Shown here one piece after another: positions 2,360 through 55,336 of a DNA stretch of 55,673 bases; position 1 is the stretch's first letter, and each line of letters starts with the position of its first letter. Both the position numbers and the translations under genes were made by a program. The DNA is taken from contig JAPEUG010000005.1 of NCBI GenBank assembly GCA_026025795.1, positions 62,001-117,673 on the forward strand, given 5' to 3'. The notes beneath the pieces were generated by a model. The model did no database searches, had not been told where the DNA came from, and was given only the letters and a program-made list of their open reading frames with translations. Origin of the DNA: Thelocarpon superellum. Lineage: Eukaryota.

Positions 2360-2526
2360 CACGAAGGATGTCCACTTCTGAGATGCTAATATGCGGAAAT
2401 GAGGGACCCATTTGGATGGGTCTTGTGGAATGTGTCACTATGTGTCACTGCATACATGGGGATATGCTCTGCGGAAGTACTTCCGTACACAGTTCAGCCT
2501 TATCCGAGTCCGAAGTAACATACTCG

Positions 2527-2616
2527 TGTAGGAGCGCGCACGTGATCTGGTCACGTGCCCACTCCTATTACTATCCCGACTACGCGTAGGTTAGCAATAC
2601 AGCTCTGATTCCTACA
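2527..2616 (-). mobile_element. 90-bp miniature non-autonomous element, copy 1 (inverted relative to copies 2 and 3)
   Basis: Ends TGTAGGA...TCCTACA. Flanked by direct repeat CTCG (2523-2526 and 2617-2620). About 89% identical by manual alignment to the reverse complement of 19041-19130. Confidence 0.85.
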
Positions 2617-2993
2617 CTCGTACATTTATCTGTATCCGTGGTCCGGGTACGTGAATTAGGCGATGGACCAATACGAGACGAGACAAGCCAATGACATAAT
2701 CACTCCATCGCGGCATTCCAGCACCTTGGAGACCTTGAGCCTCGTTCGCTGGAGAATCGAAGACCGACCTGTCGCGCTCAATAGATCATCTTGCCGGTAC
2801 ACTGGCCTGTACACTGCATAGCTGGAGATTTTCATGGTCATTTGAACTCCAAACGTAGGTGGACATGCACCGTGAGCGACCGTCTCCAACAGATACAGCA
2901 GCGATCAGCGGTCTCGAGCCACCTCTCTTTCTCTGATCACACCTGTTTCCGAGCTTCTCCTCCTCCAGAACCTCAGCAACGTCCAGTCTCCTG

Positions 2994-5033
2994 ATGCGTC
3001 GAGCAACGGTCCAAGCCTTTCGGACTGCTCGGCGATCATATGGACGGAGATTGATCCACCATCGTCCATCCGTCCCACGACCGTCCAGCTACTTGTTAGC
3101 TTTCCGATCTGCCTCGTCGTCCTCCCGAAGAGAGCATGCCGCACTATCCACCAGACCGTCCATGTACTTTCGAAATTTCTCCGTCGCCCTCGTGTCGACG
3201 TTGGTCGCGTCGGGAGCCTGGTACGCTTACCGTGACGCCTCTCCATCCTCGGCGAGCGCCATCTTCAACCTGACCAACGCCTCCGTCTCGCACTTTACCG
3301 AGCCGAAGAAGGGGTTGACGTCGAGCAGCGTCTATTCCACCTCCGAGCAGGCGACTCCAGGGGGACCGACCGCGGAAGAGGCAGCTGGGTCAGAACGGCG
3401 TGCGCTGGTGGTGGAAAACGACCAGTTCTACACGGGCACTGTCGTGGGCAACGGACCCTTGGAGAAAGCCACGGACGATGCAGGGCGCAAGGTGCTAGAG
3501 ATGTTGACCCCGGAGCAAGTCACGGCGAAGCTCCGAACGAACGAAGAGTCATATTTGGTGGGCCGAGGACGGGGCGTGGTGCGGTATGACGTGGTGCAGA
3601 TTCCCAGCAACGATCCGATCGAGGACGATCATGCCGAGAAGATTGTCGAGGTGCCGCCAACCGTCGCCGCCGCGGAAGAGGGTATGTCCAGCAGCGATTG
3701 GATGTTCTGGGGGGTGTACGATGGGCACAGGTAGGGAGGTCATCGACGGTGGAGGTGCAACGCTGACCTGGCGCAGCGGATGGACCACCTCGGCCAAGCT
3801 CCGCCAGGTGCTGATCAGCTTCGTGGCACGCGAGCTCAACGCGACATACAAGGCGGCGCTTGCTGACCCGGCCGTGACGGTGCCCACCCCGGAATCGATC
3901 GACGCGGCAATCAAGAAGGGATTCGTACGGCTGGACCACGAGATCATCCACGAGAGCGTCGACAAGGTGTTGAAGGCCAACTCCAAACGGGTGGCCGCCG
4001 AGCTCCTCGCCCCGGCTCTCTCGGGCTCCTGTGCCCTCCTCTCTTTCTACGACAGTCGATCCAGACTGCTCCGAGTCGCCTGCACGGGTGATTCGCGCGC
4101 GGTCCTGGGCCGACGAGGGGCAAGCGGGAAATGGGTCGCGACGCCGCTCTCGGTCGACCAAACCGGCGGCACAGACGAAGAAGTGGCACGACTACGACGC
4201 GAGCATCCCGGCGAAGAGAACGTGGTACGCAACGGCCGGATCCTCGGTGGTCTGGAGCCCTCGCGCGCGTTCGGCGACTCCTTCTACAAATGGACGCGCG
4301 AGACGCAGGAGCGAATCAAGGGGTCTTTCTTCGGCCGCACGCCCTCTCAGCTCTTGCGCACCCCCCCCTATGTCACCGCTGAGCCAGTGGTCAGCACGAC
4401 CAAGGTGGATCCAGCCAAGGGCGACTTTGTCGTCATGGCCACGGACGGGCTGTGGGAGATGCTCACGAACGAAGAGGTGATTGGCCTTGTGGGCCAGTGG
4501 CTCGAGAAGCAGGCCGCGGGCCAGATCAGCACCGAGAGCACCAGCGCCTCCTGGCTCCGCAGCTGGTTTGGCCCGTCCAAGGGCGGTCTTCCCGTCGAGA
4601 AGCAGGGTCAGGCGCCTCTGGGCGACGGCCATGGGCCGGACAACGGCCAACGCACGCCCATCCGCCAACAGCAATGGGGCGTCAGCGGGGACGAAGACAA
4701 GCGCTTCGTGGTGGAGGATCTCAACGCCGCCACGCATCTGGTTCGCAACGCCTTGGGCGGCAGAGATCGCGACACGGTGTGTGCGCTTTTGACGCTGCCG
4801 AGTCCTTATTCGCGACGGTATCGGTGGGTTCTTGCCTCTTAGCTATGATGAGAAATCTCGTCCCCTCTTGTGCGTGACTTGGGGCGAGGCTAATATACAT
4901 GGGTGATGACAGGGACGATCTGACCGTTGAAGTGATCTTCTTCGGCGAAGGCGACAAAAGCGGAAACGTGGTGGTGAACCGTGAAGCTAGTGCTTCTTCG
5001 TCTGGAGGTGATCCGATCAAGGCGAAGCTATGA
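2994..5033 (+). CDS. PTC5: PP2C-family pyruvate dehydrogenase phosphatase (Ptc5), 3 exons
   Basis: Arg/Ser-rich N-terminal presequence plus a hydrophobic segment. PP2C motifs SNDPIEDD, FWGVYDGH(S)GW, VACTGDSRAVLG, LEPSRAFGD, MATDGLWE and RDDLTVEVIFF. Introns 3731-3776 and 4824-4912 restore the frame. The protein ends ...GDPIKAKL*. Confidence 0.92.
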
Positions 5034-5122
5034 TTAGGGCAGGATAAGAGTGTGGAAGAGAGTAGATGATATACCAAAGCAAGGAGGAAGCAAGCGAAAT
5101 CTCTCTACAAGTCGTCCGTAGA

Positions 5123-7488
5123 TCATTCCTCGCCGAGGATCGAACAGGGTGGTGATGACAACAGCGATGGTGGTGGAGGTAGGAGTGGTGATGATGATGA
5201 CGGCCAGCGTGAAGCGTCATCCCCGCCATCGTCGTCGCCGTCGCCATCGCCGAGAACAGACATGGTCTCAGAAAGCGCGCAACCTGTTCCACTCCCTCTT
5301 GCACCCCTTCTCTCGTCCTCTTCTTGTTCTGCGTCGGCCCAAAAGGACGACGGAGTCGACAGAGGCATTTCGCCCAGGACCGAGAAGGAGCAGGGACTCG
5401 CGCGAGACCGTGGACCATGCCCGTAGCTCGTTCCCAGCTGCGCCTCCCCGTCCACGCCCATGTCCATCTCGCTGTCCCCCCTGAGCTCAGACATGGAACT
5501 ACTGACATCATGACCCGAATCCCGTCCTGAGCTGGCTTGCGACGTCCATGAGAGAGAACACGAGAGCGCCATGTCTTCGGCTAACTGGGACAGCGAGGTC
5601 GTGGACGTATGGCGCGAGGGGAATCGGGATCCTCCGGTTGATATGCATCGCCGCGTCGTAGTGGACTGCAGAGTGGAAGTTGGTTGGTGCAGCCATTGAT
5701 TCGTGCTAGGTCTGGATATGGACAGTCCTGAAGCCGAGGCGCGGTCCGCGGAAATATGAGGCCAGATTCCTGTCGTTTCTTCTTCGAGATCCGACAGGTC
5801 CTGCATGTCCTCTGAGGCGTTTGTGCCCTGTGAGATTGTCCGTTGTTCTGGAAGCTGCTCGGTGGTCTCCATACGTGTCGCTTGTGTCTGCTCTTCCTCC
5901 ATCTCCTGCGCATCCTCTTGACTTCGTTCTCTTGCTCTTTGCCTGTCGACAGCGATTCGCATCGCCAAGTCTCTGCTGATCTCGTTGATGTTCAACTCGT
6001 CTCGAGACCAAGTCGTGTCTGCTCCATAGGAGGGTGATGACGACGACGATATTAAGCCGGTAGACATCTCCCGTCGTCTCGTAATTTTATCCTCCTCTCG
6101 TAGCACCTCAAGTGGTTTCAGGCTCCGTGCGGTCTCGGGATTAAACATGCCCTTTTGCAGAATCCGCCATAGACGCACGCGAAGCACCTTTCCTAATCTC
6201 GCGCTCGTCCTCTGACCCGCTCCTGGCACAGTCTCTTCTTCCTCGTCCTGCAATCCCTCGCGTAGGTGGCCGATTTGCAGAATTTGGTTTCGTAATGAAG
6301 CTGAGCTGGTTCGCCGACTGACGCTCTCAAGAGCGTGCGAGATCAGTGGGATAAAAGGAGCTCTTTGCGCAACAGCCTTTCGTCACCCTGGTATCAGTCA
6401 CGCACCAGCGACATATGGTCCGGTGGACTCACCGGTAGGTACTCCGGGCTCCACAGTGCTGGAGCAATGACGGGTAGCTTGCGCCCCTCTTCACCTCCCA
6501 ACACCCTTATGTTTCGCGCCATCTTCCTCGGCCGAATGGTGAACAGGCTTCTGAGTCCCGCGTCGACCATGCTCATGACGCTTGATGATGTTTCCCACTC
6601 GGCCGGGCGTTTCCCCTGGTGCTCCTCATGGCTATTTTCAGCCGCGTCCATACCCAGCTGCCGCTTCAGAGGCCGCAGCTCCGTGTGCCATTGACGTGGC
6701 CCCGACGTTGCCCCTGACTGTGAGGTAGCTGGAGAGCCATATTCCGTACTATCCCCTGACTCCGACGTGATCAATGGTCGTGTTAGGTCTGCCACGCGAT
6801 CAGAGCTATTCGGAGACGAGGCTGACGACCGACGGCGACGGATACATCGCTGAAGGTTGGGCCTCGTCCTCTTCAGCCGCTGCTCAATGACCGGCGAGGT
6901 CGTGAGTTGCAGGTGCATCCGTACTTGCAACTGGGTCATCTCCACCACGGAGACTCCTGGTGGAGGTACCACATCACCAAACGTGGGGGGCTCATGACCA
7001 TAGCATTTTATCTTCCCTCGAGGTCGTCCGTCATTGTGGGATCCTTCTCGTTCGGCGTGACTCAGGGAGATGATGATCTCATTGGATCCCGCCTCAGAGA
7101 CGATCTCAGGACTCCTCGACGATGGTAAGAGGTATAGCTGTGTCCAGAGCTGGCAATCGTCAATGCAATATCGACCACAGCCCAGGTGAGCATACCCTAC
7201 CTTGGCCGTCATAAGCATCTGAGTCGTGCGTGCGATAAGACCCGGGGGGGGCTCATCCCCAGTTAGTAGCTGAAGACGGACATGTAGACCGGCACCCCTC
7301 TTCACCCACGCTTCTCCCGAGGTCAGCACATCGCTGGAAGGGGCGACGGTCGGAGCACCATGGGCCGCCGAAGACGAAAAATGGGCACGGGGAATGAGAT
7401 GGAGGGTATGTTTAGATTGGGCGTCATAGATCGTGAGCCTCCCCAGCTCGAGAGAGAAAGACGCCATGGAGGCGAGAGCAATGTGGCA
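5123..7488 (-). CDS. Conserved fungal hypothetical protein, multi-exon; 5' end uncertain
   Basis: Long ORFs 6394..7728 and 5123..6253 are joined by a GTGAGT intron starting near 6432, giving APALWSPEYLP/AVAQRAPFIPLISHAL. C-terminus is low-complexity. The start was chosen at MASFSLELG because the upstream part of the ORF overlaps the TatD 3' end. Confidence 0.55.
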
Positions 7489-7667
7489 CCAAGGTCCACG
7501 GAGACTGACCCTCATCGTATGGGAGACGGGCAACACGCGGATTCGGTACCGGAGAGAACTGAACATGACACCTACCATCGTACCCGGGCATGCACAGCTA
7601 TGGACCGTGACTAGGACCTGATGTCTTTCTTCGGTGAGATGTTCGATATTCGCCTTGGCTTCTGCAT

Positions 7668-8810
7668 TCATGCTGCTTCCTCCACCACCGTCTCGCCGAG
7701 ACCAAACATCTGGACCGAATTCCGCCACGTCGCCTCGGCCACCTGCTGGACGGGGACGTCCTTGATCCTGGCCACAGCCTGCGCAACGCGGACGATCATG
7801 GCCGGCTCATTACGACCTTTGACCATCAGGCCACGCTCGAATTTTTCCTTCTTTACGGCCTTGACAAGCGGCGGTGCTCCTGGATCATTCACGTAGCTGG
7901 CCGACGCATGGCTGGCTCGGATTTCACACTGTTCTCGTCGACGTCAGCGAGGCTCTACTGCCGCGATGAATCAAGATGGATTGTCCTCACCCATGGCCCG
8001 TCCGTCTCAATCTGCATGCGATCTAATGGAATTGCTTTGACCACGGCCACATTCTCCTCGGTCTTCATGCTGCATCCATTGACACCAACATCCAGGCCCA
8101 GATCCAACATCCGCTGCATCTCGTCTAAAGTGCCAGTAAAGCTATGGACGAGCCCTCTCTTTGGAATCTGCGCCAGCTTCGGACCCAACAATCGCTCGAA
8201 ATCCTCGCTGGCGGCTCGAGAGTGCAGGAAGAGGGGCAACTGTAATCGGACGGCCGCCTCGAGCTGCTTCTCGAAGTACTTCAGTTGTAGAGGCTTGGAG
8301 GCCAAGGAGAGACGATCGTAGTCGAGACCAATCTCGCCGAAAGCCACGGCGGCGCCTGATGCGTGGGCGTCGCTTGCCAGACGTTCAAGGTCCCGAAGCA
8401 TGGCGTCAGGACCAGCTGCGCCCTCGTCGAACTCTGCGGTCGAGCAGGGATGTACGCCAATGGTGGCATAGCAGAGTCCAGCTAGAACATGGTCAGACGG
8501 GGTGCGGCGAGGGGGGTAGAAGGCTGACGGTGCTGTTGGGCAAGTGCAACGGCTTTCTGTGACTCCTTCAGACTAGACCCGGTGACCATGAGCTTGGTGC
8601 AACCGACGTCGAGTGCGCGTTTGAGGACATCTTCCAAGTCGTCCTCGTGTGCTCGTTTTCCGTGATAGACGCCTCGAAAGGTGGGATCCGTCAGATTGAT
8701 CGCGACCTGGCTCTGGGTGTTGGTGGACGTCAGAAGCAGACGGGCGATGGACCTACATCTGCATATCGGAGCTTGGGAGATGGCTCATCCGGAGGGGCAG
8801 CGGCAATGCT
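7668..8810 (-). CDS. TatD-family DNase, multi-exon; start codon not resolved
   Basis: Exons encode KLRYAD/VAINLTDPTFRGVYHGKRAHEDDL, VAFGEIGLDYDR, LPLFLHSRAA, GLVHSFTG, MQIETDGPW and VKGRNEP, all TatD amidohydrolase motifs. Confidence 0.9.
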
Positions 8811-9342
8811 CACTGTCACAGGAGGAGATCAGTTATTCGCCATAAATCCATCAGGTTACGAGTGGGTCGGCATACTCCTGGAGGCCGCAATTGGCCTTGT
8901 TGTCGGATTTGGGCACCGGGACGGCCTTCCGCCGAACGCACGCACTACCAGAGAAGGCCTGGCATGGCAGCGAAACATCTACGCATTATGATTGGTGTGG
9001 TTGGATCGGAGGAAAGAAGGAGGTACGAGACGCTGTGCTGCGACCGTATGTCATCTGCGTCGCAGCTCTCACCGCCTTCGCCTGGCCCAATCACCGCCGG
9101 ATCGAAATCTTCCCACGTGGGCTTCATGCCGCATCTGAGACGTTCCGGCGGAGTACTTGCAAGGTCACACCCTGTTCTACGAAATCCGTGTCTCGCTCCA
9201 CACTCATGTAATACATATGGAAGGATGGTAGGTGGGTATGACTGGACGACGTCGCGTCTGCCCCGGCAGTGAGCATCTGATTGGATTTGTCATGCGTCAT
9301 CAAGCGCAGAGAGGAAAGTGGAAAGGACGTGGCACGAAAGGC

Positions 9343-10273
9343 CTAGATCTCGGTCTCGTTGGCATCTGCGGCGTCCTGAGTCTCCGTCTCCTTTCCCTTC
9401 TCCTTGTCCACCGTGCCTTTGGCGACTTTGGCCGTGCCGACGCCGTCTTTGCGCGTGGCAGGACTCCGGGCGTCGGAATCGTCGTCGTTGTATTTGCGTA
9501 ACAGCTCGGCCACGTCTTTGTTCTCGTTCTTCTCCGTCACCAGATTCTTCAGCCACTTATTCTCCATCTTCAACTGGTGGATGATGATTTCCAGCTGTGT
9601 GTTTTTCTCCGTCTGCTCCTTGACCGATTGTTCCAGGGCCTGCTCGCGTTGCTTCTTCTTCACCCGAAAGCGCGCGCTCGCTGCTGTGTTGCGCCGACGC
9701 TTGTCCTCCTCCGCCAACTGTCGCGATTTCTCGTCGCCGGACGCACCGTTGGGGTCGAGCGAGGTCGAGTTTGCCGGGCCCAGACCGAGCGGAGACGACA
9801 TCAGGTTCGTCGTGGGCGAGGTGGCCGTCGACGACGACGTGTTGGGGGGTGGGTAGGGGGCTTGCTGAAGGCCGGGGCCCATGACGACCTGGTCGTCATT
9901 CAGGAGATCTTCGTAGCCGGAGAAGTCGGTGAATGGATAGGACCCTGCATACCCGCCACATCGTCAGTCGGGCGGCGTGGCGAGGAGAGATGGCGACGAT
10001 TGGCATGGGAGACATACCTGCGATGTAGTGCATGCTCGGCATCCCGGCGCGTGGGCCTACGGGGCCGCTGCGGCTAGAGCGGCCGGGATGGTAGGGCACG
10101 GAATTGCCCGCCATACCTTCGGGCATCTCATTCAGATCGAAGAATTCGGTATTGGTGAACTTGGCCAGCTCATCATCTAGATTGAAGGTCTCTTGCTGCT
10201 GGAGCGCCAACTCTTGCGGGGTAGGAATGGCGTTGAGGTCCGCGATGTACGGGCGATTGGCGGCTCCAGACAT
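9343..10273 (-). CDS. metR: bZIP transcription factor, sulfur-metabolism regulator MetR/CYS-3 type, 2 exons
   Basis: Basic region EEDKRRRNTAASARFRVKKKQREQALE plus a zipper ending ENKWLKNLVTEK. N-terminal DDELAKFTNTEFFD motif. Intron 9945-10017 (GTATGT...CAG) puts both ORFs in frame. Confidence 0.85.
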
Positions 10274-18287: not shown

Positions 18288-19040
18288 GATGACGCTCTCA
18301 ATGCCTCTCAATGCCTCTTAAGCTTGGTCGCGACGCCGTGAGCTCAACGGACTTGGGCGACGTGGTGCGTGGAGTGCTATTGTCATATCTGACGTAATGG
18401 CGAGCAACGGGTGCGGGCCGAGGGATAAGGTTCACCCAGTCCTGGGACGAGCAGGGTCAAAGGTCGACGTCAAATGCCATGGCATGCATCTCCATCACAT
18501 GCTATGCCGATACAACCTCGGGACTGCCCGGTGTACGGATGCCTACACATTCGCACCCCTCTGTATCTCTCGAATTACGTTCCTTTTTTCGCCAGGGAGT
18601 TTAGGGAGTGGATGGGGCGGTGGCATTGAGGCTCAAGATCTCATGCAACTGCTCCTTTCACCTTCTGGAGCGCTGCAGCAAGCGTTCCTGAGTGATATTC
18701 GTTCGAACATGGTTTGGTAGACGAAAACATCGAGCAAACGAGGAGCGGAGGATGATGGGTCTTACCGTATCGGCACCAATGCCATCCGTACCAAATCCAG
18801 AAGTAAAGAGAAAGAGCACCACGACGGTAATGGTGATCCACTACGCCACCATCGGCGCCAGGACATCTACAGTGGTAACGACAGCGCGGAGCCAGGCATG
18901 CAAGCAAGAGGTGAGGTTGCGAAGGGCTAACCTGCAGCATGGGAGATAGTGGCAAAGCCCCCGAATGACCAGGCCGAGTCAGCAATTGACTGACGCAACG
19001 CCCACCAGATGCCTGCGGGCAGAGCTCGATTAATCACATC

Positions 19041-19130
19041 TGTAGGAATCAGAGCTGAATTGCTAATCTACACGTAGCCGGGATTGTAATAGGGTTGGGC
19101 ACGTGACTTGGTCACGTGCGCGCTCCTACA
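19041..19130 (+). mobile_element. 90-bp miniature non-autonomous element, copy 2
   Basis: Ends TGTAGGAATC...GCTCCTACA. Direct repeat CATC at 19037-19040 and 19131-19134. Internal palindrome GCACGTGACTTGGTCACGTGC. Confidence 0.85.
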
Positions 19131-19625
19131 CATCGAGTAAGAGACTGCGGCGAGGAATTGACATAGCTAGAAGTAACCGGTAGTGAAGCATTGGTAGTGC
19201 TTCACTGCCGTGTGCCCCATGAGCTGATTACGTACGAATACTCGACACAGTTGGCTTCGACTGAATTTATCACAGGTACTTCATACCGGAACAGTTGCAG
19301 TGCCGGTGGGGGGTCGCGGCGTGTGGCGACCTTCGTCGCGGGCAACCTCGCTTGGCCGGGAAGGGTGACTGGCTTCCTTGGAGGTCTGGTAGCGATCAAG
19401 GTAGCCAACTCGCTAGTCATAGCGATAGCTTCATCAACCGGGACTTTCCGTTATCGTCATTACTCAGGCCCCCAGGACCCCGAACAATGCCTGGTCCCGG
19501 TCGATGATATGGTACGAGTACCGTCCAATGGTCCCAACCAACACTAGGCTAGCAGCCCAGTGTCACACGTCGCTTGGCAACTTCGCCCCAGAGCAACTTC
19601 ATCTGTTCATTTCTTCACCTTAATC

Positions 19626-20599
19626 TCATGCAGCTCGTCGTCTTCCTTGCTTGACTTGCTCCTGCTCCGAGGATTGGTATAGCTGTTCGCTCAGTATCCA
19701 TGCCGAGACGCCTGGTGTGACGAGGCGGTGCAAAGTCTCCTCGTCGCCCCGCGCCACGGCGTCTCGGACTTTGGTCGAGCTCACCGTTTCCTCGCCCTCC
19801 GCTCGACCCGCCACCAGTTCAATCCGGTCGGCCCACGCTCGCTGGCCTCCCTCGTGCTCTCGCTTGCCCTCGGCGAGATCCTTGACGTACTGCGCCTGGT
19901 CGGCCAAGGACCCCCACGCCGCGTCGGTGCGATAGGTGACGCGTAGCCGATGCCGCTTCAAAAACGGCGCCAAGGGTTCCAAGTTATGATGAGGCGGATA
20001 ATATTTGGGGTTCAAGATCCGAATCAGTGTATCATATCCGATCAGATGCACCTGCGGCGGACCCGCCGAGGCCGTCGTAGCATAGACTGGCAAGGTCGCG
20101 ATGGCCTCTGCCTTGTCACGGAAGTATGGTAGCGTCGTCACCGCGACGTCCACCGCCGGTAGCTCGGCCTGGGGCGGAGCGTCGTGGGCAAGATGCTGAC
20201 GACAGTCATGAGCCAAGGCGGACATCATGGCGAGACGATGCTCAAACGGCGCCGGGGTCGGTGCTTGAGGCCTGGTCAGTGGGTGGGTCAGGGCACGCGG
20301 GGGAAGGAGCACGGGAGCGGCTGCTGGTACGGTGGACTACCTTTGTCCGCATTCTGGGTCGCGAGCAGCAATAGCAAGCGGCTCGCACCATATCCCGGGC
20401 CTTGCTTCAGGGCCGACGTGGCAATGCGGAGGTGTGCCTCTGTGGGTGGGTTGAAGGACGAGTCCAGCACGAATACGGTCGTCAAGGAGGAAGGCGATGC
20501 TGCGGCCGCGACGTCTGGGACCGTGTGGATGATGCGGAAGTCAGTTTCCATGCCTTGATCAACTTCGCTATATGGGTTTGGCATGTTTAATTTTAACAT
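19626..20599 (-). CDS. POF1: Nicotinamide mononucleotide adenylyltransferase / cytidylyltransferase-like protein (Pof1 type), 2 exons; start at 20599 or 20551
   Basis: Motifs VLDSSFNPPTEAH (HxGH-like), LLLLATQNADK, HRLAMM, PYFRDKA, HLIGYDTLIRILNPKYY and VSSTKVR. Intron at about 20264-20340. Confidence 0.8.
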
Positions 20600-26972: not shown

Positions 26973-29900
26973 ATGCCTCGCCTTCCATCGGATGACTACC
27001 TGTCCGAATCGCTCCAACCCTCCAACTCCGGCATTCCCGAGGATGGCGATCTCATAATGTCCTCCGATGATAATCCCCCGGGATACACCCCGCCGCCGCA
27101 CATCGCCGCCCGCTTTTACCGGCCCTCGAACAACCGACGACGCTCGTCCGCGGCGTCCTCGCGTCGTAATTCCATCTCTTCAGCACATTCCCATCACTCC
27201 CATCACTCCCATCACTCCCATCACTCCCATCACTCGCACCAGTCACACCATTCCTACCACGGCCCGCAGAGTAACCACGTGGCCCAGCACCTGCGGCGTG
27301 CCTCCATCCTCGAGAGCCGCAAGGCCCGCCTGGCCGATCGAGCCGCCCATGCCGAGAAGGTCCGTCTGCGCGCTGCCATGGCCAAGGCGGCCCCTCGGCC
27401 CTCCAACAGCGAGGAGCGCGCCTTGGCCGCCCAGCACGCCCGGGAGAAGTACCTGGCCCAGGTCACCGCGGCCTGCGCCGAGGAGGTGAAGAAGGCCAAG
27501 CGCGTGGCGGAAGACATGAAGGAGAAGCGGGAGGCGGAACAGCGGAAGCTACGGGGCGAGACGGAAGAGAAACTGGCCGAGGCCGAGAAGCGGAGGGTGG
27601 AGTACAAGCGACACCTGAAGCGGGGGCGAGGGCCCAGTCCGGCACGAGTAGAGGAGAAGAAGATGGCGCCTATGGCGTCGGCGGTACCGGACGAAATGGC
27701 GGCGGTCCGCCGAATACAAACGGCGTGGCGGCGCCGGCGACGGAGAGCGAGCTTGATGGCGTTTCGGGCTCTCGGGCTCTCGCTCGAGACGGTGCGGAAC
27801 GCGAGCTTCGAGACGCTGGGAGACCTCCTGGCAGAGGATCGAGTGCTCCACAGCACCGCCAAGATGCTTGACGTCTGTGGCCTCCATGACCGAGAGGCGG
27901 GTCCGGTCGAGGACCGTACCGCTGTTCGCACCTTTCTCAGCGCCTACCTGATCGCCGGACATCCCGAACATGTGCTGAGTAGCCAAGAGGAGCAGGAGCA
28001 GGTATGCGTGGCCCCGCCAACGTCCCTCGATTCAACCGCTGACCCCGGCCCAGGATCTCATCACAAAGTCGCGAGACGTGCTGCTTGCATTTGAGCAGCT
28101 CATGTTGGCGATGGAGCGGATGCATTATCAGCTTCCGCATGCCCGCGTTCGGGTGCTCGCCGAATCGTACAGTACCTTCCGGGCGGCATTCACGGCATGG
28201 AAGGCGCACGATTCAAGTACGTTGGTGCAGACCATGATCGCTCAATATGTCGAGTTGGACTCGATCTGGCAGACGGTCAAGGATGCCACGGAAGACGTGG
28301 TGAAGATGGAGTACAAGGAAGGCATCCAAAACAACCAGGTGTTGCTCATCGTACGGATCAAGCGGTTGGCTGGGCCGGAGAAGGCCAAGGCCATGATTCA
28401 ACACGCCGTGCGCCAAGCCCGGCGACATCGCGGTCACAAGCCGACGGGCGATGCCCGACCTCGAGCCGCGTTGGAAACGTCCGCCGTGGCTCCGGACGTG
28501 AATCTAGCCTCTGCGAGTTCCGCTTCGGTCGACTCGCACCTCCCGACGCTCACCCCGCTGCCACAGGTCTCGCGCCGGCTCTCACCGCAAGCGGGAGAGC
28601 TGCTGAAGATGACGTCGGCCTTACCAGATAATCGGACGCTGGTGCATGAGCTGGCCATCAACCGAGACTACCGGATTGGGGCAGGATCGAGCAGCAAATC
28701 GGAGCTACGGAATAGCTTGCACGCCGCCATCTTCGATCAAATGCGGCGAGATATTGACGTGGGTCAAGGTGATCAATGGATCGTCGCCATGGCGGAGAAC
28801 ATCCGAGAGAAACTTCTTCGTCTCCTGACGCCGGGCAACTCGTTGCACACGCTGATCTCCGAAGCGCTGGACCCGGTCGTGGTCCAACGAGAATGCTCGA
28901 CGGGGAGCTTTTCGTACGAGCGATTCTTCTCCTTCATGGCCACTGTTCTCCCCCGACTCTGCGCTCCGTTCCGCGACGCCGACGTCCGGACGATCTCGGA
29001 GGACCAGAGTGGCGACGTGATTGATCGGCTGGCGAGACTGATGCAAGTCATTGATCTGTTGTCGCTCGATTACGCCAATTATATCCTCCAAAACTCCGCG
29101 CCGCGGCTGATCAGCGAAGCGCCTGGGTACGAAGAACGGAAATTCGCTCACGATCTCGAGAGGAACGCGTTGGGGCTGCAGCGGACGGAGCGATGGTGGA
29201 CCAAAGCACGCGCCAAGGTGTTTGAAGAAGCCCAGCGACGAGATACGGAGGGGATCGGCCACCCGGCGAATCGGCCAACGCTGGAGAAGATCTATCTCTA
29301 CGCACTTCACGATCTCTCAACGAATCCGGCCGATGTGACGGTCGAGGATCTCCCCGAAACCCTCTCGCTCGACCAAGAACGCATCTCACGCATGCGCGCC
29401 GACACGCTCCGCATCATCACCATCGGCTCGATGCTACTGACGGCCAAAAACCTCCTGAAGCGCGACGTTCGCACGGCGTGGAAGAGCGAGGCGTCGAAGA
29501 TGTGGGACATTCTGTCCCACTCGCCGATCCAGTACGCCCCGGGGCTCTTCAACGCGCTGCTCGCCACCGTCGAATCCGCCCACGCCCTCCCGTCGAGCAG
29601 CAAAGCGCATCTCAGCGCATCCATCACACGGATCCTGTCACAAGCGTCGTGCCGGCGCCTCAGCGACCCGGTGCTCAAACTCCTGCACCACCGCCTCCGC
29701 AGCCACCTCTTCGCGCGTCTCACGGCCAGCAGCGCCGGTGACCGCGTGCGACTCGCCAGCACGGCGTCGGAAGGTCTCGCCAACAGCGGTCTGCCTGAAT
29801 TTGTGGCCCGCATGGGCGTCATGGCTGACGAGCTTGCGCGTGTCGGCAACGTCGATCGCGAGGCTCATGGGAAATGGTACGACCAAATTGAAAGTCGCGT

Positions 29901-30051
29901 GGCTGCGGCGCAGGCGCAGGCGCAGACGGGCGAGATGGTCTCGGCGGCGGGAGCGGGAGGAGTCGCGGCTGGGGCGATAGGATTAGGTGGTGATGTTGCA
30001 GCTACTACGACGACGACGACGAAAGAGGTGGCTGGTACGCGACTCGGTTGA
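26973..30051 (+). CDS. SOK1: SOK1 / T-complex protein 11 (TCP11) family protein with an IQ-like motif, 2 exons
   Basis: Motifs IQTAWRRRRR (IQ-like), RTFLSAYLIAGHP, LVHELAIN.DY, LCAPFRD, DLLSLDYANY, GYEERKF and LPETLSLDQERI. Intron at about 28002-28053. Confidence 0.8.
27187..27258 (+). repeat. Coding 9-bp tandem repeat (CATCACTCC)n encoding (SHH)n
   Basis: Directly visible; translates as SHHSHHSHHSHHSHHSHQSHHSYH in the SOK1-like frame. Confidence 0.9.
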
Positions 30052-37600: not shown

Positions 37601-37733
37601 CGGCGAAGTGCTTGTTGGGTCGGCTTGCTTGCTTACTCACCGGCTTGCTCGTGCAAGTGGGCATTCCCGCACTGCCTCGCGTGAGGAAAGCTCTGCTGTG
37701 CTGTGAGATCGCGACCTACGTTAATTCGGCGTC

Positions 37734-37842
37734 GGCCAGCGACCAGCGGCCAGCGGCCAGCGACCAGCGGCCAGCGACCAGCGACCAGCGACCAACGACC
37801 AGCGACCAGCGACCAGCGACCAGCGACCAGCGACCAGCGGCC
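37734..37842. repeat. 7-bp tandem repeat (G[AG]CCAGC)n, about 15 units, intergenic
   Basis: Directly visible: GACCAGC GGCCAGC GGCCAGC GACCAGC... Confidence 0.95.
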
Positions 37843-38442
37843 CAAGACACATCAGAGGAAGAAATTCGCCACCGCCGCGCTGCAGCAGCAGGAGCAGCAG
37901 TAGGAGCAAGTGCAGCTTACCTAGCCTCCCAGACAAGGACGCGGCCCCGTACGTGGTAAGAAATCGGCAGCATCTAGAGGGTAGGTATGATGTGTCATGC
38001 GCACAACGTGCAGTCGACAAGTCAAACACAACCAATCTCACGCCACGCCTCCCCTTTCGACATTTTGCTTTTTTGCAGGCCAATACCCTCGCTGGGCCAC
38101 GCGACCAGAAGACAGCCTCTCGGCGCCTCAACGAACAGTCTGTGATGATGTAGGGCGGCAGAGGGGTGCGTGTGCCTCTAGCAGGTCGACGTAAAGCACA
38201 ATTAGGGCCGGGGAGGGTTGGCAGTCAGGCCGGCAGCTTCGTACAACGGTAGTGGCAGTGGGAATAGTGGTAGTGGTGGTGGTGTGGCCCCTTGTTGTAA
38301 TCCCGATGGCGCATTGCATCTCTTTCTCCTCTTGCCATGCCACCCCCCACATCACATCTCATCACATCACCGCAGGTGCGCTCATACGACTTCGGGTTGT
38401 TTTTTCCGTCGATGAGCTGGCTGACAAGCGTTTTCGGTCGCC

Positions 38443-46795: not shown

Positions 46796-49700
46796 TCCGG
46801 GCAAGAATGATATTGTTGTGCCTCTCGTTGCGCAAAACCCCCACGTACGGCTGAAAGGTAGAACATCTCATTCCTTGCTAGAACAGGCAAGTAATCCTGG
46901 TCTTTGCGCTCTCGACATGCCATGGATGACGAGACAAGGTTTCGTCTACAGCATCGATGCCGGGGGGCAGAGGATCGCATGTCACAGTTTCAAGTGTGTT
47001 CCGACATGACGGGCATGACAACCTCCGCGCACTGGCGCCACATCTGGCGCAGCACCGTCCGGGCGGGGGTCATGCGGCCACTTTGGACGACACCTACCGC
47101 GCCGACATTGATGACAAAGTATGGCGCAGGTGACTGGGTGATTGATGGTGGTGACGTGGATGGCTTCCGGCGTTGACAGCCCCCATTCAAGCGCGTGTGG
47201 CTGCACTCGCGGCCCCGGGTTCGGCTTCCGCCCAAAAAGCCGCTCACGTGTAGCCGAACTGGGAGGCGGCGGACGGTCGATTTCACACTCGGCCCAATTG
47301 ACTCAGGGCTCGCCCGGATCGCTATGGCGAGCGCGACCGTGGCCGAGGACGCGAGCGGCGATGACGGCCGATCGAGCCCTATGGAGGGAAAAGGGCCTGT
47401 CGGTCCATCATGCTATTATTCCTCGCTGACTTGAGTCAAGAGCCATCGGCCTTGCGGGACTAACCATCTTACCATGCGCCGCCTCCAAGCGGGCTGCATT
47501 GCGACGAAGCGGGCGAATGGTGGGCGGGTGACACGCGAGCGAAGCCTGGAGGAACGATGCCGCGGGGGAAGGGGGGTCAACGGGCTAGCGGCTGCGACTC
47601 TCGGTAGTGCCGATGCCGATCATGTCTGGTAGCGACGCGCCGATTGATCGATAGCGTCGGGGCGAAAGGGGAGGGGGGGAGGACAGCCCTCCGCGCCGGT
47701 ACGAGTCGTTGGTTGTTTGGGGGCCAACACGACCTTTACGCGGCACGACGGAGGTGGAGGGAGGAGGAAGCACGCGGGGAGAAGGGCCTCGACGTGGCCT
47801 GACAAACGTCCGGTACGCCGGTACGGTATCCCATACGGCGGCACATCGTACAAGTTCGCCGCCTGCCTGGCGCCGCGCGCACAAAAGTAGCTACCAGCAT
47901 GCACGCGTACTCTGCACGAAGGACCAAAAAAGAATGATCACGCCCGTGTTCCATGCACCAATGCCATCGCGCGTGCTCTGTCGGTGACCATGTCCATAGC
48001 GCCGGCATACGCCTAGGGCCAGGCAGCGTCATCCGATCGCCGTCGAGGCGGTCTGCACCGACCAAGCCCGGGCGGCACTGCGGGTGGAAGGTTTGGCATA
48101 CCCCGTAGAGGGTGAAGAATGTCGCCGGCCACGAGGACAGGCTGCGTGTGAGCAGCCATTGGCTGGCACAATTCCCCTGTGGACAAAGAGTAGTCCGTAG
48201 AGCCGTGCGTCCACCAACTCGGGAGGTCCTGAATAATCTACAATACTGCGGGGGTCGAGGTGTGGGGGGATGGGGAAAGATTGTACTGGCCAACCGTTGA
48301 AATCGGAAATTGCAGGTGCCACCTCGTGCGAAAGTCAGAGTCGGCCCTCTGACACGCCAAGTTGTTGGTTTGGCCGCGCTCGTTGACCGGACCCTCCACT
48401 ACCGCTGTGCACCTGTCACGCCGGGACAGAGGACACACAACCAGGCCACTTTACCTCCGCGAAACACGCCGGCGCTCTTTGTCCACGTTGCCGCCATCGG
48501 CCGATGGTGGCCGCCGCGTGACGCCGGTGGTTGAAATGCAAAAGTGGCTAAGCCACTGAAACCTCCGGGTGCAGATCGTCGTGTCGCATGCTCGTCCGAC
48601 GAACCGCGAGCATGATGGACCACGCATTCCCTCTGTATCCCTCTCACGCGTGTGGTGGCTACGGTCGCTGCTCTTGCGCCTGCCGTGGCTGCTGCAACAT
48701 GCTCTCCCATGCGAGAGGTGGGTCAGCGTGATGCAGGACGCCACCCTCTCGCTACCACTGGCTTCCATTCTTCGCCGGCGATGCGGGTGACTCCAACTAC
48801 TAGTTGTCGAACAACGGTACTTCGTACCAACTGAAGCAAGAGGGAAACTCTCGTCCAGAATGATCTCGACCCACCCAACCCACCAGACCCCGGTTGCCCT
48901 CTCACCCTTTTCGGCCCACCACCACCGCCTATCGCTTTCTGGCAGCAGGAATAATCTGATCGGGCGAAACATCCGTTGGTCCTCTTAGCGCACCCGACAA
49001 CTTATGCCGGTCCTCGTTGTCAAGCCTGGAGCGCCTGAGATTCCGGCGGGCCGGGGAGGGGTTTGCCGTCCGACGGAGCGGTCGTCGGCATGACGTCTTG
49101 GACTGAACCGTGGTCACGGAAGGGAGGAGGAGGCGACGGTGAGGCTTCAGGCGAGGGTGCCACTGCACACGCCACGCCGTCGTCGGATGGCGCTCTCTTG
49201 CATCATCCCCAGGCCCAAAGCAGTCTTCCGGTCATGCTTCCTTCGCAAGCGAACGCGAGGCGCATGAGGGCGAGGGCGTTGGAATGGTGTTGGTCCGTCC
49301 GGCCGCAACGCACCCACCCCCCCTCTCATCCCCCCCCGGTCGACCCACGCCCTAGGCCGTTTCCCTTTCTTCGCCAAGATGGAGAAAGGTGTTGCCGCCT
49401 GAAGACACGCGGATGGTAGCGCTTGAGCTTGTCGATCGATCGGGCCTTAGTGGCGCCGTAGTGGAGTCCTCGACTTCTAGAAAAACTGCGCGCGCAGCGT
49501 GGGACGCGGAGAGGGAACCAAGGAAGCCGCTAGGTTTCTGTCGGCACCCTACACTAGCCCGTCGCCCTGGTGCCCCTCGCCGCCTCTCGTCCCCATGGTC
49601 GCGCGCTGTGGCGCCGGTGGCCCAGGGTGTCTCACGTTTGGGCCCATTGACCGGCGCACAGCAACGCAGCGCAGCCCAGCACGCGCGCAGCGCAGCAGGT

Positions 49701-50924
49701 CGGCATCAGACACGGGATCTGCAGTTGTACTCATCCTGTTCTCGTCCGGGTGTCGCTTGAACGTAGCGAGCGAGTCATTGGCGGTGCCCGTGGGCGAGGG
49801 GGACGGGGGATGGGAGGCAAAGCGCCTGGGCAATGCCGTGAGCACACCCACCGTTCGCCCACATTCGCCCACCCGCCAACCAGCGGTGCCTTTCCGCCGC
49901 CCGCCGCAGGGCTGCGGCCAAATCCTCGGTCGCTTCAGGCCGGATAATAATCCTAGACTTTCCCTCCCACACACGCACCACACGCACCTGGACGGGTAAC
50001 ATAGCCGTAGCATCCCAAACGAGTCGCCTACACGCAGGTGGAGGTGCCGTGTGGTGTGCGCCACGAGTCGTGCCCATTACTCGTGCTCATCGGCCCAAGC
50101 CCGCCGCGCCCATCACTCGCCTCGTCTCGTCTCTTCATCAGCCCGCGCACCCGCTCGCCGCGACTTGGGGGACCGTGGCGACGTTGTGGCCCTACAACCC
50201 TCATCACTTTTCTCTCCTTCCTTCCGTTCGGCATCGTGGAGCGTCATCACCCCGTCCACACCTGCTCCTGAATTGTGGAATTTCCTTTCTCATCGGCTCT
50301 CCAGCACGCCGTCACTCGGGTCGTTCGTCGTACGACTCTTCTAGCCCATCGTCGCCCGCGAACCACGCCACGGTGCACGCCCTGCTCCAGTCTCTATTCG
50401 GCAGGTCGGCGGCCGTACATGACCTTTTCTTGCCACTCTCGTCCACTTCCTCCGACGGTCGGCCTCCGCATCACATCAGCCTGCGCGGCCTTGCCTCCAT
50501 TCACGCTGGTCCAGCTCCATTGACTGGAGAGCCCAGGCCGTCCCGACCCGGGCCAGGATCGCGGTCCGTTATCCGGAAACCACTCCCTCCTCCTCGCTGC
50601 CCGCCCCCACCTCTCATCTGGTGTAACGCTGCACCAGGTTCGGGCTTGCCAGCGTCGGCGGTCGACACCAGCCTGCAACAGGACCTCATTGGTCTCGCTC
50701 CACGTCCATCACACGAGGGGCAGCGGACAACTGCCGCCGCTTTTCGGAGCGATTGGGCCTCGTCCCACTGCATGCGACGTGAAGAGGCAGGGCGAACGTC
50801 CATCCTCGGGCTACGGGCTACGACCGGCGGCTACGGCTACGGCTACAAAGCTTCGGTCCTAGACACGGCGACTCGACGCTCACCCACGGGAGCAACGAGT
50901 TGGCTGCTTGGTTGACCGGGCGCC

Positions 50925-52037
50925 ATGATCAGTCGGAGGTCACAACGCCCCTCCGCACGAGACTTCTCATTCTCTCCCCGGGAGACCTCGCCCGGCCTCT
51001 CGGTGTGGTCCGATTGTGACGCCGACGACGAGAGCACCATGTCGTCCGAGGACCAGACCTCCGCGCGGTCCCTGACCGTCAACATCCCCCAGTTTCCCCT
51101 CTCCACTCAACGCCCCACCTTGGCCGAGATTCTATCGAACACTGCCCCACCGCCATGGACGCTGTCAGCCTTCATGGCCTACCTGTCACAGAACCACTGC
51201 CTGGAGACGCTTGAATTCACCATGGATGCCTCCCGATATCGACAACACTTTGACCAGATGGAGCCTTCGGGCCCGGCCAGTGCCGAAGGCTGCGAATACG
51301 TCAAGATGCTATGGCGACGCCTGCTGGATGCCTACATCATCCCGGACGGTCCGCGCGAGGTCAACCTGCCCAGCGACGTCCGAGACCAATTGCTATCCCT
51401 CTCGAACAGCTACGTGCCGCCCCCGCCCGACTCGCTGGAGCCGGCGGTCAAGATCATCTACGACCTCATGGACGAGTCCGTTCTCGTCCCCTTCCTCAAC
51501 CACGTGTCGGGGTATCGGGCAGCGACCTCGTCGCCCAGCCTGGCGCGGAGTTCGGACGAGGACATTGAGATGCAAGGGAGCGGAGACGAGGCCTCCAATG
51601 GTCGATCGTCACGAACGCGACGGGGCCGTCGCGGCTCGTCGCCGCACTCGGCACATTCGGTCATGGAGTTCGTGGCCAATTCCTTCTCGTCGTCATCGAG
51701 CGGTCACCAGAAACGGCCGTCGCGGACGTCGAACGTGACCCCATCCGGCTTCGGTCGCAGCAGCCGGCTCTCGCCGCGTCCCAGCAACAGCTCGGATAAC
51801 CTCACGGAGGATGTCAGCAGTCCTGGGAGCCCCGGGCACGAGCCCATGACCCCGCCGACGACGCCGCCGACGAGCGACGCCGGTGGGGTCAGCCCAACGA
51901 TGAGTCCTCGGTCGCGGGCCGACGTGACGTGGAAGCGGATGACGGGCAAGCTGGGGTTCAAGAAGCCATCGCGCAATGGGCTCCACCGTGACGGGCGCAT
52001 GCCCGGCATCGACAATGACACGGGCGCCATCTTATAG
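50925..52037 (+). CDS. rgsA: Regulator of G-protein signalling, RgsA/Rgs2 type
   Basis: RGS domain RPTLAEILSNTAPPPWTLSAFMAYLSQNHCLETLEFTMDASRY...YIIPDGPREVNLPSDVRD...LMDESVLVPFLN, followed by a Ser/Pro-rich tail with PMTPPTTPP. Confidence 0.88.
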   Translation: MISRRSQRPSARDFSFSPRETSPGLSVWSDCDADDESTMSSEDQTSARSLTVNIPQFPLSTQRPTLAEILSNTAPPPWTLSAFMAYLSQNHCLETLEFTMDASRYRQHFDQMEPSGPASAEGCEYVKMLWRRLLDAYIIPDGPREVNLPSDVRDQLLSLSNSYVPPPPDSLEPAVKIIYDLMDESVLVPFLNHVSGYRAATSSPSLARSSDEDIEMQGSGDEASNGRSSRTRRGRRGSSPHSAHSVMEFVANSFSSSSSGHQKRPSRTSNVTPSGFGRSSRLSPRPSNSSDNLTEDVSSPGSPGHEPMTPPTTPPTSDAGGVSPTMSPRSRADVTWKRMTGKLGFKKPSRNGLHRDGRMPGIDNDTGAIL

Positions 52038-53059
52038 CGTGAGGAGGTCGCAGTTGCGACCGCCACCATGAAACGACTGGCCGTGTCCCCGCCAACATCA
52101 GAGATTGATCTGTCACGGCCGTTAAAACGACGAAGACTGCTCCCACTGCTCTTCCGACGGAGCTCATCCTTGGGTTCCAGCCACCCCTCCCTTCCGTACT
52201 GAACGACGTCCGATGAACGCTTGTCAAGTCCCGCCCATGAATTCTACGATCTACCCATCTACCCATCATTTAGTCTGCACGACGCAGATGACGCACACGA
52301 ACTAATCATTGTCCAAACTGTGACCATCATCTCCCCGCCCACACCACCGACATCCGCACCCCGCTCATCTCGAGCGACCATCTATCATCACGCACGCTGG
52401 CGTTTTACTCATGGTGGGAGTGATTTGATTTCGACATTGAGCTGCATTGATATTCGAGTCGGGCTAGGGAGAGCATGTTCTTTTGAACGATTGATCGTTT
52501 GATTTGATATTACGAGGCTAGATTGGGAAGGATATTGTGATTTCACGCGTGACGCGACGTTTTGCGTGGATTTTTGGAATTCATCGGCGGCGCGTTGCAT
52601 CATCTCGTCATTGTCATCACGGCTCCTTTCAACACAACTACCACCTACCACGTTATTACTCTTATTTTTCGCGTCGCCTGAGAGATCAGAGGCCCAAAGG
52701 CCAGAGGCTAGATGCCAACGGCCGGGGCCGGGGCCGGGGCGGCATCTGATCACATGGTTCCCTTCCGTCATGCGTTTTGTCCTGTCCTTTTTCTCATACT
52801 CCTCATTGTCTTTTACCCCCTCGACCTGCCTTTCGAGAGAGTGGCATGGTGGAGGAGGCACGGAGGTACACGGGGGGATGCGAGACTGGACTCGAGCATC
52901 ACCATGACTACATGTATAATCATCCACAACCTCCTTTAACGAATTGACGGGAATGACGCTTGAGAATGAATGAGCTGGACCACAAACAAGTACGAGCTCC
53001 GTGGGTATGAATCAGTAAATATCTCAACGTGGCATGGCGATATCTACGGACGCTACAGA

Positions 53060-54704
53060 TCAAGGCGTACGAAACACAATTTCCAAAACAGCCATGCCAC
53101 TTCCAGGCGGCACGTTGGCCGCGACGAAGTGGAGCCGCGAGTCCGCGGCGTGGAAGAGCGCCCTCCACATTGCCAACGTGCGTTCGTGCGCGTTGCAGAG
53201 GACGAGCGTTTGCATGTCTGATACCCTATTTCTCTCTCACCGTCGCATCAGCATCGGTCGCTTCGATATTATTGATCATTATAGGTGAGGGGCATCCAAC
53301 GGAGGGTGGAGGGTGGAGGGTGGAGGGTGGATGGTGGAGGGTGGATGGTGGAGGGTGGATGGCGGAGGGTGGAGGGAATGGCAAGAGGGGGATGGGAGGA
53401 TAAATGAGGACGAGGAAGAAATCCCCAACCAACCCACCCACCTCTTGAGCATACTGAGATGATCAGGCACTTCATTGGGTTCAGGCAGGACGAGTTCGGT
53501 AACGATGATACGATCGCCGTCTCTGAGGGCTGGCAGGAGAGCGTGGATCATCTTGACGCAGTACGGGTCGCTCCAGTCGTGGAAGATGGCGCGGAAGAAG
53601 AAGACGGCGGCGTCGCGCACCGGTTGTGGCTGGAAGAAATCGTGCGCCATGAAGCTTATGCGGTCCTTCAAGTCGCTGGGGATCAGCGCGGCCGCGTTCG
53701 GCTCCACCTGTGGCATGTCTTGCACGACGAAAGTCAACAGGGGAAACTCTTGAGCGAGCGAGATGCTGATGTGCCCGCCTGAGCCGCCGACCTGGGTGAA
53801 GTTGGGGTCTTTGGAGGCGCCTGGGTGGGGAAGGAGTGGGGGGGTGGGAGGGGTTGGGGAGAGGGAGATGATGCGGACCTACATCGACCACCTTGGCTTT
53901 TCCCAAACTCGCCCAGTCGAATCCACGATTGACAACACTGGAGTTATATGCGAAGCCCGAGGCAAGAAAACCCATGGCTTCGCTGAACCGCTAGGCACGA
54001 GCAGGTTCCTCGCCGTACGACAGCCACAAGGTCCTGCTAAAGGCCACCTTGTGAGCAGTCTCTGCGGGCTCGATGGAATTTTCGTAGGTCTTGAATGCCT
54101 TGAGGAGCTTGAGACTGGCTGGCGCGGCCTCGTACAGATTGTGGTCCAGCCACGCCTCGGCCAGCGGATTCAGGATGACCTTCGACGCCGCCGTGTGCGC
54201 CACTTGACCTGGTTCCGGCTCAGCGAAGATGCGTGACGGCACCAATACTCGGATGACGCGGTGAAGACGGTCAACGTCCAGTTGAGCATGGTCGGCCAAT
54301 TTCTCAAAGGAGATGGTGCCCGAGAGCGGGACCAGTTCGGCGATCCCGTAGTCACTGATAACTCGTAACGCTGCTAAAGTGTGCTCCATCTACGACATGA
54401 TCAGCCTTGAGAGATCTCCCACCAGGAGTGATCCGGCGTTGGGTATGCGCACGAGAAGGGGAAGAAAGGCAATGGGGTCCTTGCGTCCCATTGCCAGGTC
54501 ATAAAGGGCCGTGCTGGCCTCGAGCAGTTTCAATCGGTTCTCCTGTAGGCCTGGATCTTGTTCCACAATGGGAAAACTATCTGGGCCGTCGGCCGCGAAC
54601 GTGGGACCAGGCACGCCATGCTCCTTGAGAGACCTTTCGATCGACGACACGCTCGCCGATACTTGCGATGCAAGATCCGTCACTGAAGGATGTGGAACAG
54701 CCAT
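53060..54704 (-). pseudogene. SAM-dependent O-methyltransferase (class II, secondary-metabolism type) with an in-frame TAG; probable pseudogene or null allele
   Basis: Four exons with canonical splice sites. Motifs FDWASLGKAKVVD/VGGSGGH, FVVQD, AHDFFQPQP, FRAIFHDWSD and DMQTLVLCNAHER. Exon 2 reads EEPARA*RFSEAMG, with TAG at 53991-53993. Confidence 0.8.
53301..53377. repeat. 7-bp G-rich tandem repeat (GGAGGGT/GGATGGT)n inside the last OMT intron
   Basis: Directly visible; makes this intron about 215 nt, against 45-100 nt for most other introns in the window. Confidence 0.9.
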
Positions 54705-55185
54705 GGTGGTCCAGGAATCAGAGTGCGGATACAGAAAGAAGGAAAATGTCCAAGGGCAGCACTTGTATCGAACAGGACCTCCTCGTCGTCTCTATGTGCC
54801 CCTCCACCCACGGCTCCTGCGTGTCAGCCGCCGAGTCGACATTGCCCACGGCCATACCTACGGTCGTTGGCGAGTAAGCACCATTCAGGAGGGGTAAGAA
54901 CCGGTGGTGAATGGGCCTGCCCGCGTATGCCGACCAAGGATTGGAAGCCTTACTAAGGAGCATTAGGCATGGTTCCATCTCGTGCTTGGCGTGATTGGGT
55001 GAGGCTGATGTCATGAGGCGGCAACGGCACATTCAGCCATAGACGGACTGGAACTGATGAGCAGAAAGTAACGTTCCTCGGGGACGTTTGGCTACCCATT
55101 GTATTAGTAATGTTGGTACTTTGTACCATGATCCCGCCACAGCTCGTTCTGTGCTGTTCAGCGAGATATGCGAGTGAATTAATAT

Positions 55186-55274
55186 TGTAGGAATCAAAGC
55201 TGAATTGCTGATCTACATGTAATCGGGATGGTGATAGGAGTGGGCACGTGACCAGATCACATGCGCGCTCTACA
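55186..55274 (+). mobile_element. 89-bp miniature non-autonomous element, copy 3 (1-nt deletion in the right end)
   Basis: Ends TGTAGGAATC...GCTCTACA. Direct repeat ATAT at 55182-55185 and 55275-55278. About 88% identical to copy 1 by manual alignment. Confidence 0.85.
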
Positions 55275-55336
55275 ATATTAGCATTTCTCCCTGATGTTTT
55301 CATTGGCCCCATTCATGGCATTCAGGCGATTATGAT

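Follow-up and report, generated by a model that had tools for sequence, protein, structure and literature searches.

A short, high-copy and recently mobile non-coding element with TGT...ACA ends in the fungus Thelocarpon superellum

The 55.7-kb stretch of Thelocarpon superellum contig JAPEUG010000005.1 that was analysed here as a whole (the window) contains three dispersed copies of a 90-bp sequence with TGT...ACA ends, each bordered by a short direct duplication. The locus raises the question of what kind of element this is and which enzyme moved it. We found that the repeat is genuine, non-coding, present in many copies and recently mobile in its host, a fungus of the Pezizomycotina. As to its nature, we favour with moderate confidence a stand-alone, non-autonomous unit resembling a miniature inverted-repeat transposable element (MITE), moved by a TG/CA-recognising DDE enzyme that is encoded elsewhere in the genome. 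The three copies are located as follows:

Positions 2527-2616, minus strand: copy 1, 90 bp, TGTAGGA/TCCTACA ends intact
Positions 19041-19130, plus strand: copy 2, 90 bp, TGTAGGA/TCCTACA ends intact
Positions 55186-55274, plus strand: copy 3, 89 bp, the most diverged of the three

The likeness among the copies spans the first to the last base, and the sequence outside differs. The 7-bp inverted ends TGTAGGA/TCCTACA, which a first-pass annotation of the window had assigned to all three copies, are perfect in copies 1 and 2, whereas the right end of copy 3 reads TCTACA, with one base deleted. Pairwise identity is 88.9% between copies 1 and 2, in keeping with the 88-89% proposed earlier for the family, but lower between copies 1 and 3 (86.7%) and copies 2 and 3 (83.3%). 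The locations of the copies were borne out by a 31-nt element probe, which at up to three mismatches found exactly these three sites in the window, against none expected from 100 shuffles. A profile search of the window with filters off revealed no fourth copy or fragment; low-complexity and tandem repeats aside, the family is the sole dispersed repeat present. As regards the earlier suggestion that its small size could let the element escape repeat-induced point mutation (RIP), the few differences among the copies are not of the CpA-to-TpA type; the changes private to copy 3 are mostly transitions, two at CpG and none from CpA to TpA, with too few sites concerned for a firm judgement.

The 90-bp unit has no coding capacity. 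ARAGORN detected no transfer RNA (tRNA)-like gene across the window, and Rfam, applied to positions 18900-19300, returned no family in the element; a small nucleolar RNA match lay outside it and was sub-threshold (13 bits vs a gathering score of 45). Exact-pattern scans with the 5' and 3' parts of the element gave no matches in metagenome contigs or prokaryote genome contigs, nor did the 5' pattern in viral contigs. A 15-letter stretch of the element retrieved no papers, and a literature search, with Repbase and Dfam outside the comparison, turned up no account of the sequence and no comparable fungal family.

The boundaries are marked by the following target-site duplications:

Positions 2523-2526: left 4-bp duplication of copy 1, CTCG on the plus strand
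Positions 2617-2620: right 4-bp duplication of copy 1, CTCG on the plus strand
Positions 19037-19040: left 4-bp duplication of copy 2, CATC
Positions 19131-19134: right 4-bp duplication of copy 2, CATC
Positions 55182-55185: left 4-bp duplication of copy 3, ATAT
Positions 55275-55278: right 4-bp duplication of copy 3, ATAT

The duplications are perfect in all three copies and differ in sequence from site to site, exactly as described earlier; three such matches would occur by chance with a probability of about (1/256)^3. The base preceding the left duplication is A in each case and equals the last base of the element. Because of this shared A, the sites could formally also be read as 5-bp duplications (ACGAG, ACATC, AATAT), in which case the element would be 89 bp long and end in AC. 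Judged by the sequence, the 4-bp reading seems preferable, since it retains the perfect 7-bp inverted repeat together with the TG/CA ends. Under the 4-bp reading, the target is A-NNNN-T at two sites and A-NNNN-G at one, a weak symmetry of the kind that staggered-cut enzymes give. The reconstructed 28-bp pre-insertion sites have a GC content of 36%, 39% and 36%, compared to a window mean of 59%, and equally AT-rich 28-bp windows make up only 1.3-3.3% of all those in the stretch.

Public sequencing runs gave an independent view of the family. Contigs of runs X1, X2, X6 and X7 were matched at a likeness of at least 80% to positions 18400-19800, the stretch around copy 2; X6 and X7 come from other organisms of the X1 study. 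Run X1 contains 91% of the sampled words of this stretch, and four moss-metagenome runs contain parts of it; no RNA run was among those listed for the stretch. In X1, 290 contigs matched, nearly all of them on the 90 bp, because the bins outside carry single-contig depth (122-150). The summed word depth in X1 reached 42,959, 71,976 and 16,590 in the three element bins and 89,809 at position 19072, compared to 122-150 in the flanks; summed word depth is not the true copy number, and taken as a rough guide it indicates several hundred genomic copies. The likeness of the 290 contigs to the reference was at least 99% for 86, 95-99% for 60, 90-95% for 94 and below 90% for 50.

In the best-supported groups, contigs that left the reference did so at the element ends, on the left at positions 19041 (14 contigs), 19040 (10), 19039 (4) and 19036 (4), and on the right at 19130 (11). 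The consensus agreement of these loose ends was only 0.42-0.66, so the flanks of the other genomic copies are unrelated. The loose ends therefore confirm the boundaries of the element and show dozens of independent loci. No shared internal sequence adjoining the unit was seen in the best-supported loose-end groups (9 of 29).

One X1 contig, with a depth of 49.4 and six ambiguous letters, joins position 19034 to 19129 and skips 94 bases. Since 94 bp corresponds to the element plus one CATC, this contig represents a precise empty site of copy 2; a never-occupied allele would account for the absence of a footprint. Its depth is about one-third of that of the flanks, meaning that the sequenced material has both filled and empty alleles. 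The insertion of copy 2 is thus not fixed, which points to recent activity. Other copies were found in X1 contigs of depth 34-135. Together with the two alleles of copy 2, this suggests that the fungus is represented in the X1 material by more than a single genotype or haplotype. The hundreds-fold depth, the unrelated flanks and the empty allele, a check that the first-pass annotation had itself proposed, together uphold its view of independent insertions by a mobile, high-copy family.

In X2, a moss metagenome from a different study, the flanks of copy 2 (18798-18984 and 19158-19331) occurred with no differences at a depth of 2.3-2.6, and four contigs carried the element in other flanks. No X2 contig spans the filled or the empty junction of copy 2. 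The same or a nearly identical fungus, with its element family, is present in the moss habitat of X2. No contigs matched in X6 and X7, which is no proof of absence there.

All three copies are intergenic, with the start codons of the neighbouring genes inferred from translations of open reading frames (ORFs). Copy 1 sits in the promoter region between two divergent genes and is upstream of both, ~170 bp from the inferred ATG of a Tcf25-domain gene (2359, minus strand) and ~380 bp from that of a PP2C gene (2994, plus strand). Copy 2 lies 0.75-0.8 kb upstream of the first coding exon of a BRO1/ALIX-type gene on the minus strand and ~495 bp beyond the stop (19626) of a minus-strand ORF. Copy 3 is ~480 bp upstream of the inferred ATG of an O-methyltransferase gene (54704, minus strand). 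Pfam identified Tcf25, PP2C, TatD, bZIP, CENP-N, BRO1/ALIX, Tcp11, Rtt106-like, PNK3P, Med18, RGS and O-methyltransferase genes in the window; the region is gene-dense and, the 90-bp family aside, without recognisable transposons.

Three tandem arrays were also observed. A 7-bp unit, CGACCAG/CGGCCAG, is repeated in 14- and 21-bp registers over ~150 bp at positions 37712-37863; a 9-bp unit, CACTCCCAT, forms an array at 27168-27266, immediately upstream of the ORF for Tcp11; and another 7-bp unit, GGAGGGT, is repeated at 53287-53377, within the O-methyltransferase ORF or next to it. Among named relatives of the Tcp11 protein (27979-30051), the best is from Thelocarpon impressellum (61% identity), two other database proteins reach 66-67%, and the best named relatives belong to lichen-allied Pezizomycotina. 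A protein-atlas search yielded just the Tcp11 family, with no informative taxon. Because of these relatives, the host is placed among Pezizomycotina ascomycetes, in a thinly sampled lineage that is not closely matched by any sequenced relative in that protein collection.

The favoured reading, a MITE-like unit moved in trans, is consistent with the generic MITE features present here: a length of 90 bp, no coding sequence, 7-bp perfect inverted ends, 4-bp duplications in three of three copies and hundreds-fold depth. None of the three window copies has a second copy beside it. We also searched, as had been suggested, for longer or paired elements that share these ends and are bordered by matching duplications, and within 20 kb only the three 90-bp units were recovered. 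According to the mechanism that we propose, an enzyme encoded elsewhere would bind the 7-bp ends with their terminal TG and CA. The exposed 3' CA ends would be joined, 4 bp apart, to bent, AT-rich target DNA, and repair of the staggered 4-bp cut would leave the 4-bp duplication. The targets would be short AT-rich patches in gene-upstream DNA, with A before and often T after the 4 bp. The likeliest enzyme would be a retroviral-integrase-type DDE transposase (Ginger-, IS481EU- or IS3-like) or an integrase supplied by a resident LTR (long terminal repeat) retrotransposon. Multiplication would require either copy-out/paste-in, the route taken by IS3 and IS481, or cut-and-paste with repair from the sister copy.

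The internal anatomy of the element may bear on how it is recognised. Beyond the 7-bp ends, the two halves of the element are not inverted copies of each other. The 3' 39 nt, however, form a near-palindrome with arms of ~17 nt and one CACGTG box per arm:

Positions 2529-2567, minus strand: 39-nt near-palindrome in the 3' part of copy 1, with two CACGTG boxes
Positions 19090-19128, plus strand: 39-nt near-palindrome of copy 2, with two CACGTG boxes

In copy 3, one of the boxes is changed to CACATG. Five of the 17 CACGTG boxes of the window lie within the three elements, as inverted pairs (2539-2557, 19100-19118, 55245-55250). The palindrome is computed to form a strong hairpin in single-stranded DNA; for the whole element, the single-stranded DNA fold of copy 1 reached -21.4 kcal/mol (z = -4.5), and z was -3.3 for copy 2 and -1.95 for copy 3. 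The word TAGGA(G) is found three times: the 5' end of the element carries it, the palindrome starts with it, and the 3' end has it in inverted form. By sharing TAGGAG with both ends, the 39-nt palindrome would be a candidate subterminal binding site for the enzyme. In the 5' half, position 19072 is G in the family majority (86,588 of 89,809 depth units in X1), and this G gives a perfect 10-bp palindrome with ACGCGT at 19068-19077, the same as in copy 1. We also considered an inversion of the hairpin loop in copy 2, which has two differences from the flipped form and three from the direct form; the case was not convincing.

Among DNA transposons related to retroviral integrases, the closest comparisons are Ginger and IS481EU. 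As reported by Bao et al. 2010 (PMC2836005), TGTNR ends are found in most Gypsy LTRs, Ginger1 and Ginger2, and the duplications are 4 bp in Ginger1, 4 or 5 bp in Ginger2 and 5 bp in TDD. The ends TGTAG found here fit TGTNR, so the integrase-type signature proposed for them earlier stands, and the 4-bp duplication of all three copies agrees with Ginger1 and Ginger2. Bao et al. also described non-autonomous Ginger copies that share only the ends, and a preference of Ginger2 for AT-rich targets, which all three sites here resemble (PMC2836005). IS481EU elements have TGT..ACA (TNT..AYA) ends, inverted repeats mostly below 50 bp and 4-bp duplications in several families, while many families have duplications of ~15 or 25 bp; they include non-autonomous families without a known partner, and hundreds of copies occur (Kojima 2023, PMC10045372). 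The present family shares with them the ends, the short inverted repeat, the 4-bp duplication, the hundreds of copies and the lack of a known partner. The ends and the duplication fit the integrase-related group as a whole, but membership in the described DNA-transposon families fails on features compared here.

Several observations weigh against a MITE-like unit moved by such an enzyme. The inverted repeat of 7 bp is typical of LTR ends and unusually short for a MITE; those of Ginger1 and Ginger2 are far longer, at 40-270 bp (50-180 bp for Ginger2/TDD; PMC2836005). None of the three duplications is CCGG or CCGT, the targets of Ginger1, and none of the sites is RTATAY, that of Ginger2/TDD (PMC2836005). 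For fungi, Bao et al. report only a Ginger2 vestige, in the basidiomycete yeast Malassezia, and nothing in Pezizomycotina (PMC2836005), and IS481EU is known only from parabasalids (PMC10045372). Among the window's 68 long ORFs, a Pfam scan detected no transposase, integrase, reverse-transcriptase or other transposon domains. Three sites are few for judging either the target preference or whether the duplication is 4 or 5 bp long. The heterogeneity of the flanks was read from the best nine of 29 loose-end groups and 14 of ~298 contig pieces, and a minority of copies with an internal region would escape such a sample; the copy number, as said, is read from word depth. The earlier proposal of an integrase-type transposase therefore holds for the ends and the duplication, and lacks both an enzyme among the 68 ORFs and the repeat length and targets of Ginger; TGT..ACA ends are, moreover, shared with PlavakaA, discussed below.

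The strongest alternative, a serious one that we regard as less probable, is that the copies are solo LTRs, left by LTR-LTR recombination after the integrase-mediated insertion of a reverse-transcribed element. The parent would be a very small retrotransposon, similar to a terminal-repeat retrotransposon in miniature (TRIM) or SMART, or an autonomous Gypsy or Copia element with unusually short LTRs. TGT...ACA ends, a short perfect inverted repeat and a duplication in the 4-6-bp range are the standard LTR signature, and LTR elements are reported with 3-6-bp duplications (PMC10045372). The internal sequence is asymmetric, without a long inverted repeat, and with A before the 4 bp at all sites, the usual fungal length of 5 bp would fit too. 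In SMART (FRetro129) of grasses, the LTRs are 85 bp long and have TGT...ACA ends, and solo LTRs measure 79-87 bp (Gao et al. 2012, PMC3281118). SMART is also non-coding and inserted near genes, with two LTRs around 122 bp and 5-bp duplications (PMC3281118). The family described here resembles SMART and TRIM elements in its ends, unit size, near-gene insertion and absence of coding sequence. It differs from them in that every copy observed stands alone, lacks an internal region and has a 4-bp duplication.

None of the three window copies is paired or adjoins a primer-binding site or purine tract, and in the best-supported loose-end groups (9 of 29) the sequences flanking the other copies vary on either side. 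A family made up almost entirely of 90-bp solo LTRs would be unusual, compared to SMART, which is mostly complete, with complete-to-solo ratios of 3.4:1 to 50:1 (PMC3281118). No retrotransposon protein domain was found in the window, and the element has no tRNA-like part; visual reading of the 90 bp gave no clear TATA box or AATAAA, which is weak evidence. In fungi, Helenus TRIMs have 5-bp duplications and a tRNA-like sequence in the LTR. Certain Helenus families persist as fragments and solo LTRs only, a point in favour of the solo-LTR origin. Helenus itself, as a tRNA-bearing TRIM, was rejected, given the absence of tRNA-like genes in the window (ARAGORN) and the 4-bp duplication.

Sola and Chapaev elements make ~4-bp duplications, and the element could in principle be a MITE of an integrase-unrelated DDE superfamily with duplications of about this length, such as AcademX, its TGT/ACA ends being coincidental. 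We consider this unlikely. For a MITE, matching ends suffice, and PlavakaA, a CACTA-group element outside the integrase relatives, has TGT..ACA ends as well (PMC12730594). AcademX duplications are 3-4 bp, the comparison being by duplication length only, and, according to a title in the reference list of PMC10045372, an Academ lineage occurs in animals and fungi. PlavakaA has 2-bp duplications (PMC12730594), and the varied 4-bp duplications found here rule it out.

Other families were excluded in the same way. The duplications are TTAA in piggyBac and Kolobok, TA in Tc1/mariner, 8 bp in hAT and 9 bp in Mutator; 4-bp duplications of varied sequence are compatible with none of these, as the first-pass annotation had argued for the last three. 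The MITEs mimp of Fusarium and Guest of Neurospora are, like the present element, short, non-coding and gene-upstream in filamentous ascomycetes; they are of the Tc1/mariner type, with TA duplications and longer inverted repeats, unlike the TG/CA ends and varied 4-bp duplications observed here. An introner was rejected for these three copies, as none lies inside a Pfam-matched reading frame and all are intergenic. Finally, a non-mobile origin, either as a selected regulatory or structural dispersed repeat, to which the paired CACGTG boxes of each copy and the position of all three upstream of genes might be suited, or as an assembly artefact, is scarcely credible in view of the exact boundaries with different flanking duplications, the precise empty allele in X1, and the hundreds of copies with unrelated flanks on independent contigs, with other flanks also in X2 from the second study.

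We regard the 90-bp repeats as a new family within a known type of element and, without their partner enzyme, not yet as a new class. To find LTR-type ends on a 90-bp stand-alone unit of high copy number is unusual in a filamentous ascomycete. Standard annotation can readily overlook so short an element: the default minimum LTR of common LTR finders is ~100 bp, and for programs that look for MITEs an inverted repeat of 7 bp is short. Several hundred gene-upstream insertions in a poorly sampled ascomycete lineage would then stay unannotated. The family is still polymorphic and hence usable as a population marker.

Cbf1-like basic helix-loop-helix factors bind RTCACRTG-type sites. The paired CACGTG boxes match this type, and we speculate that the copies might act on neighbouring promoters. 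A unit with little beyond LTR-type integrase attachment ends may transpose alone as DNA, by means of a Ginger-/IS481EU-like transposase new to Pezizomycotina or a borrowed LTR-retrotransposon integrase. Having reached several hundred copies, it would have spread paired CACGTG and consensus ACGCGT motifs into AT-rich promoter DNA, and could rewire regulation. Should the partner prove to be an integrase-type DNA transposase, the range of that group would come to include filamentous ascomycetes; the copies, if they are solo LTRs instead, would rank among the shortest known. As each copy brings two CACGTG boxes, the family may be a live source of promoter variation in this fungus.

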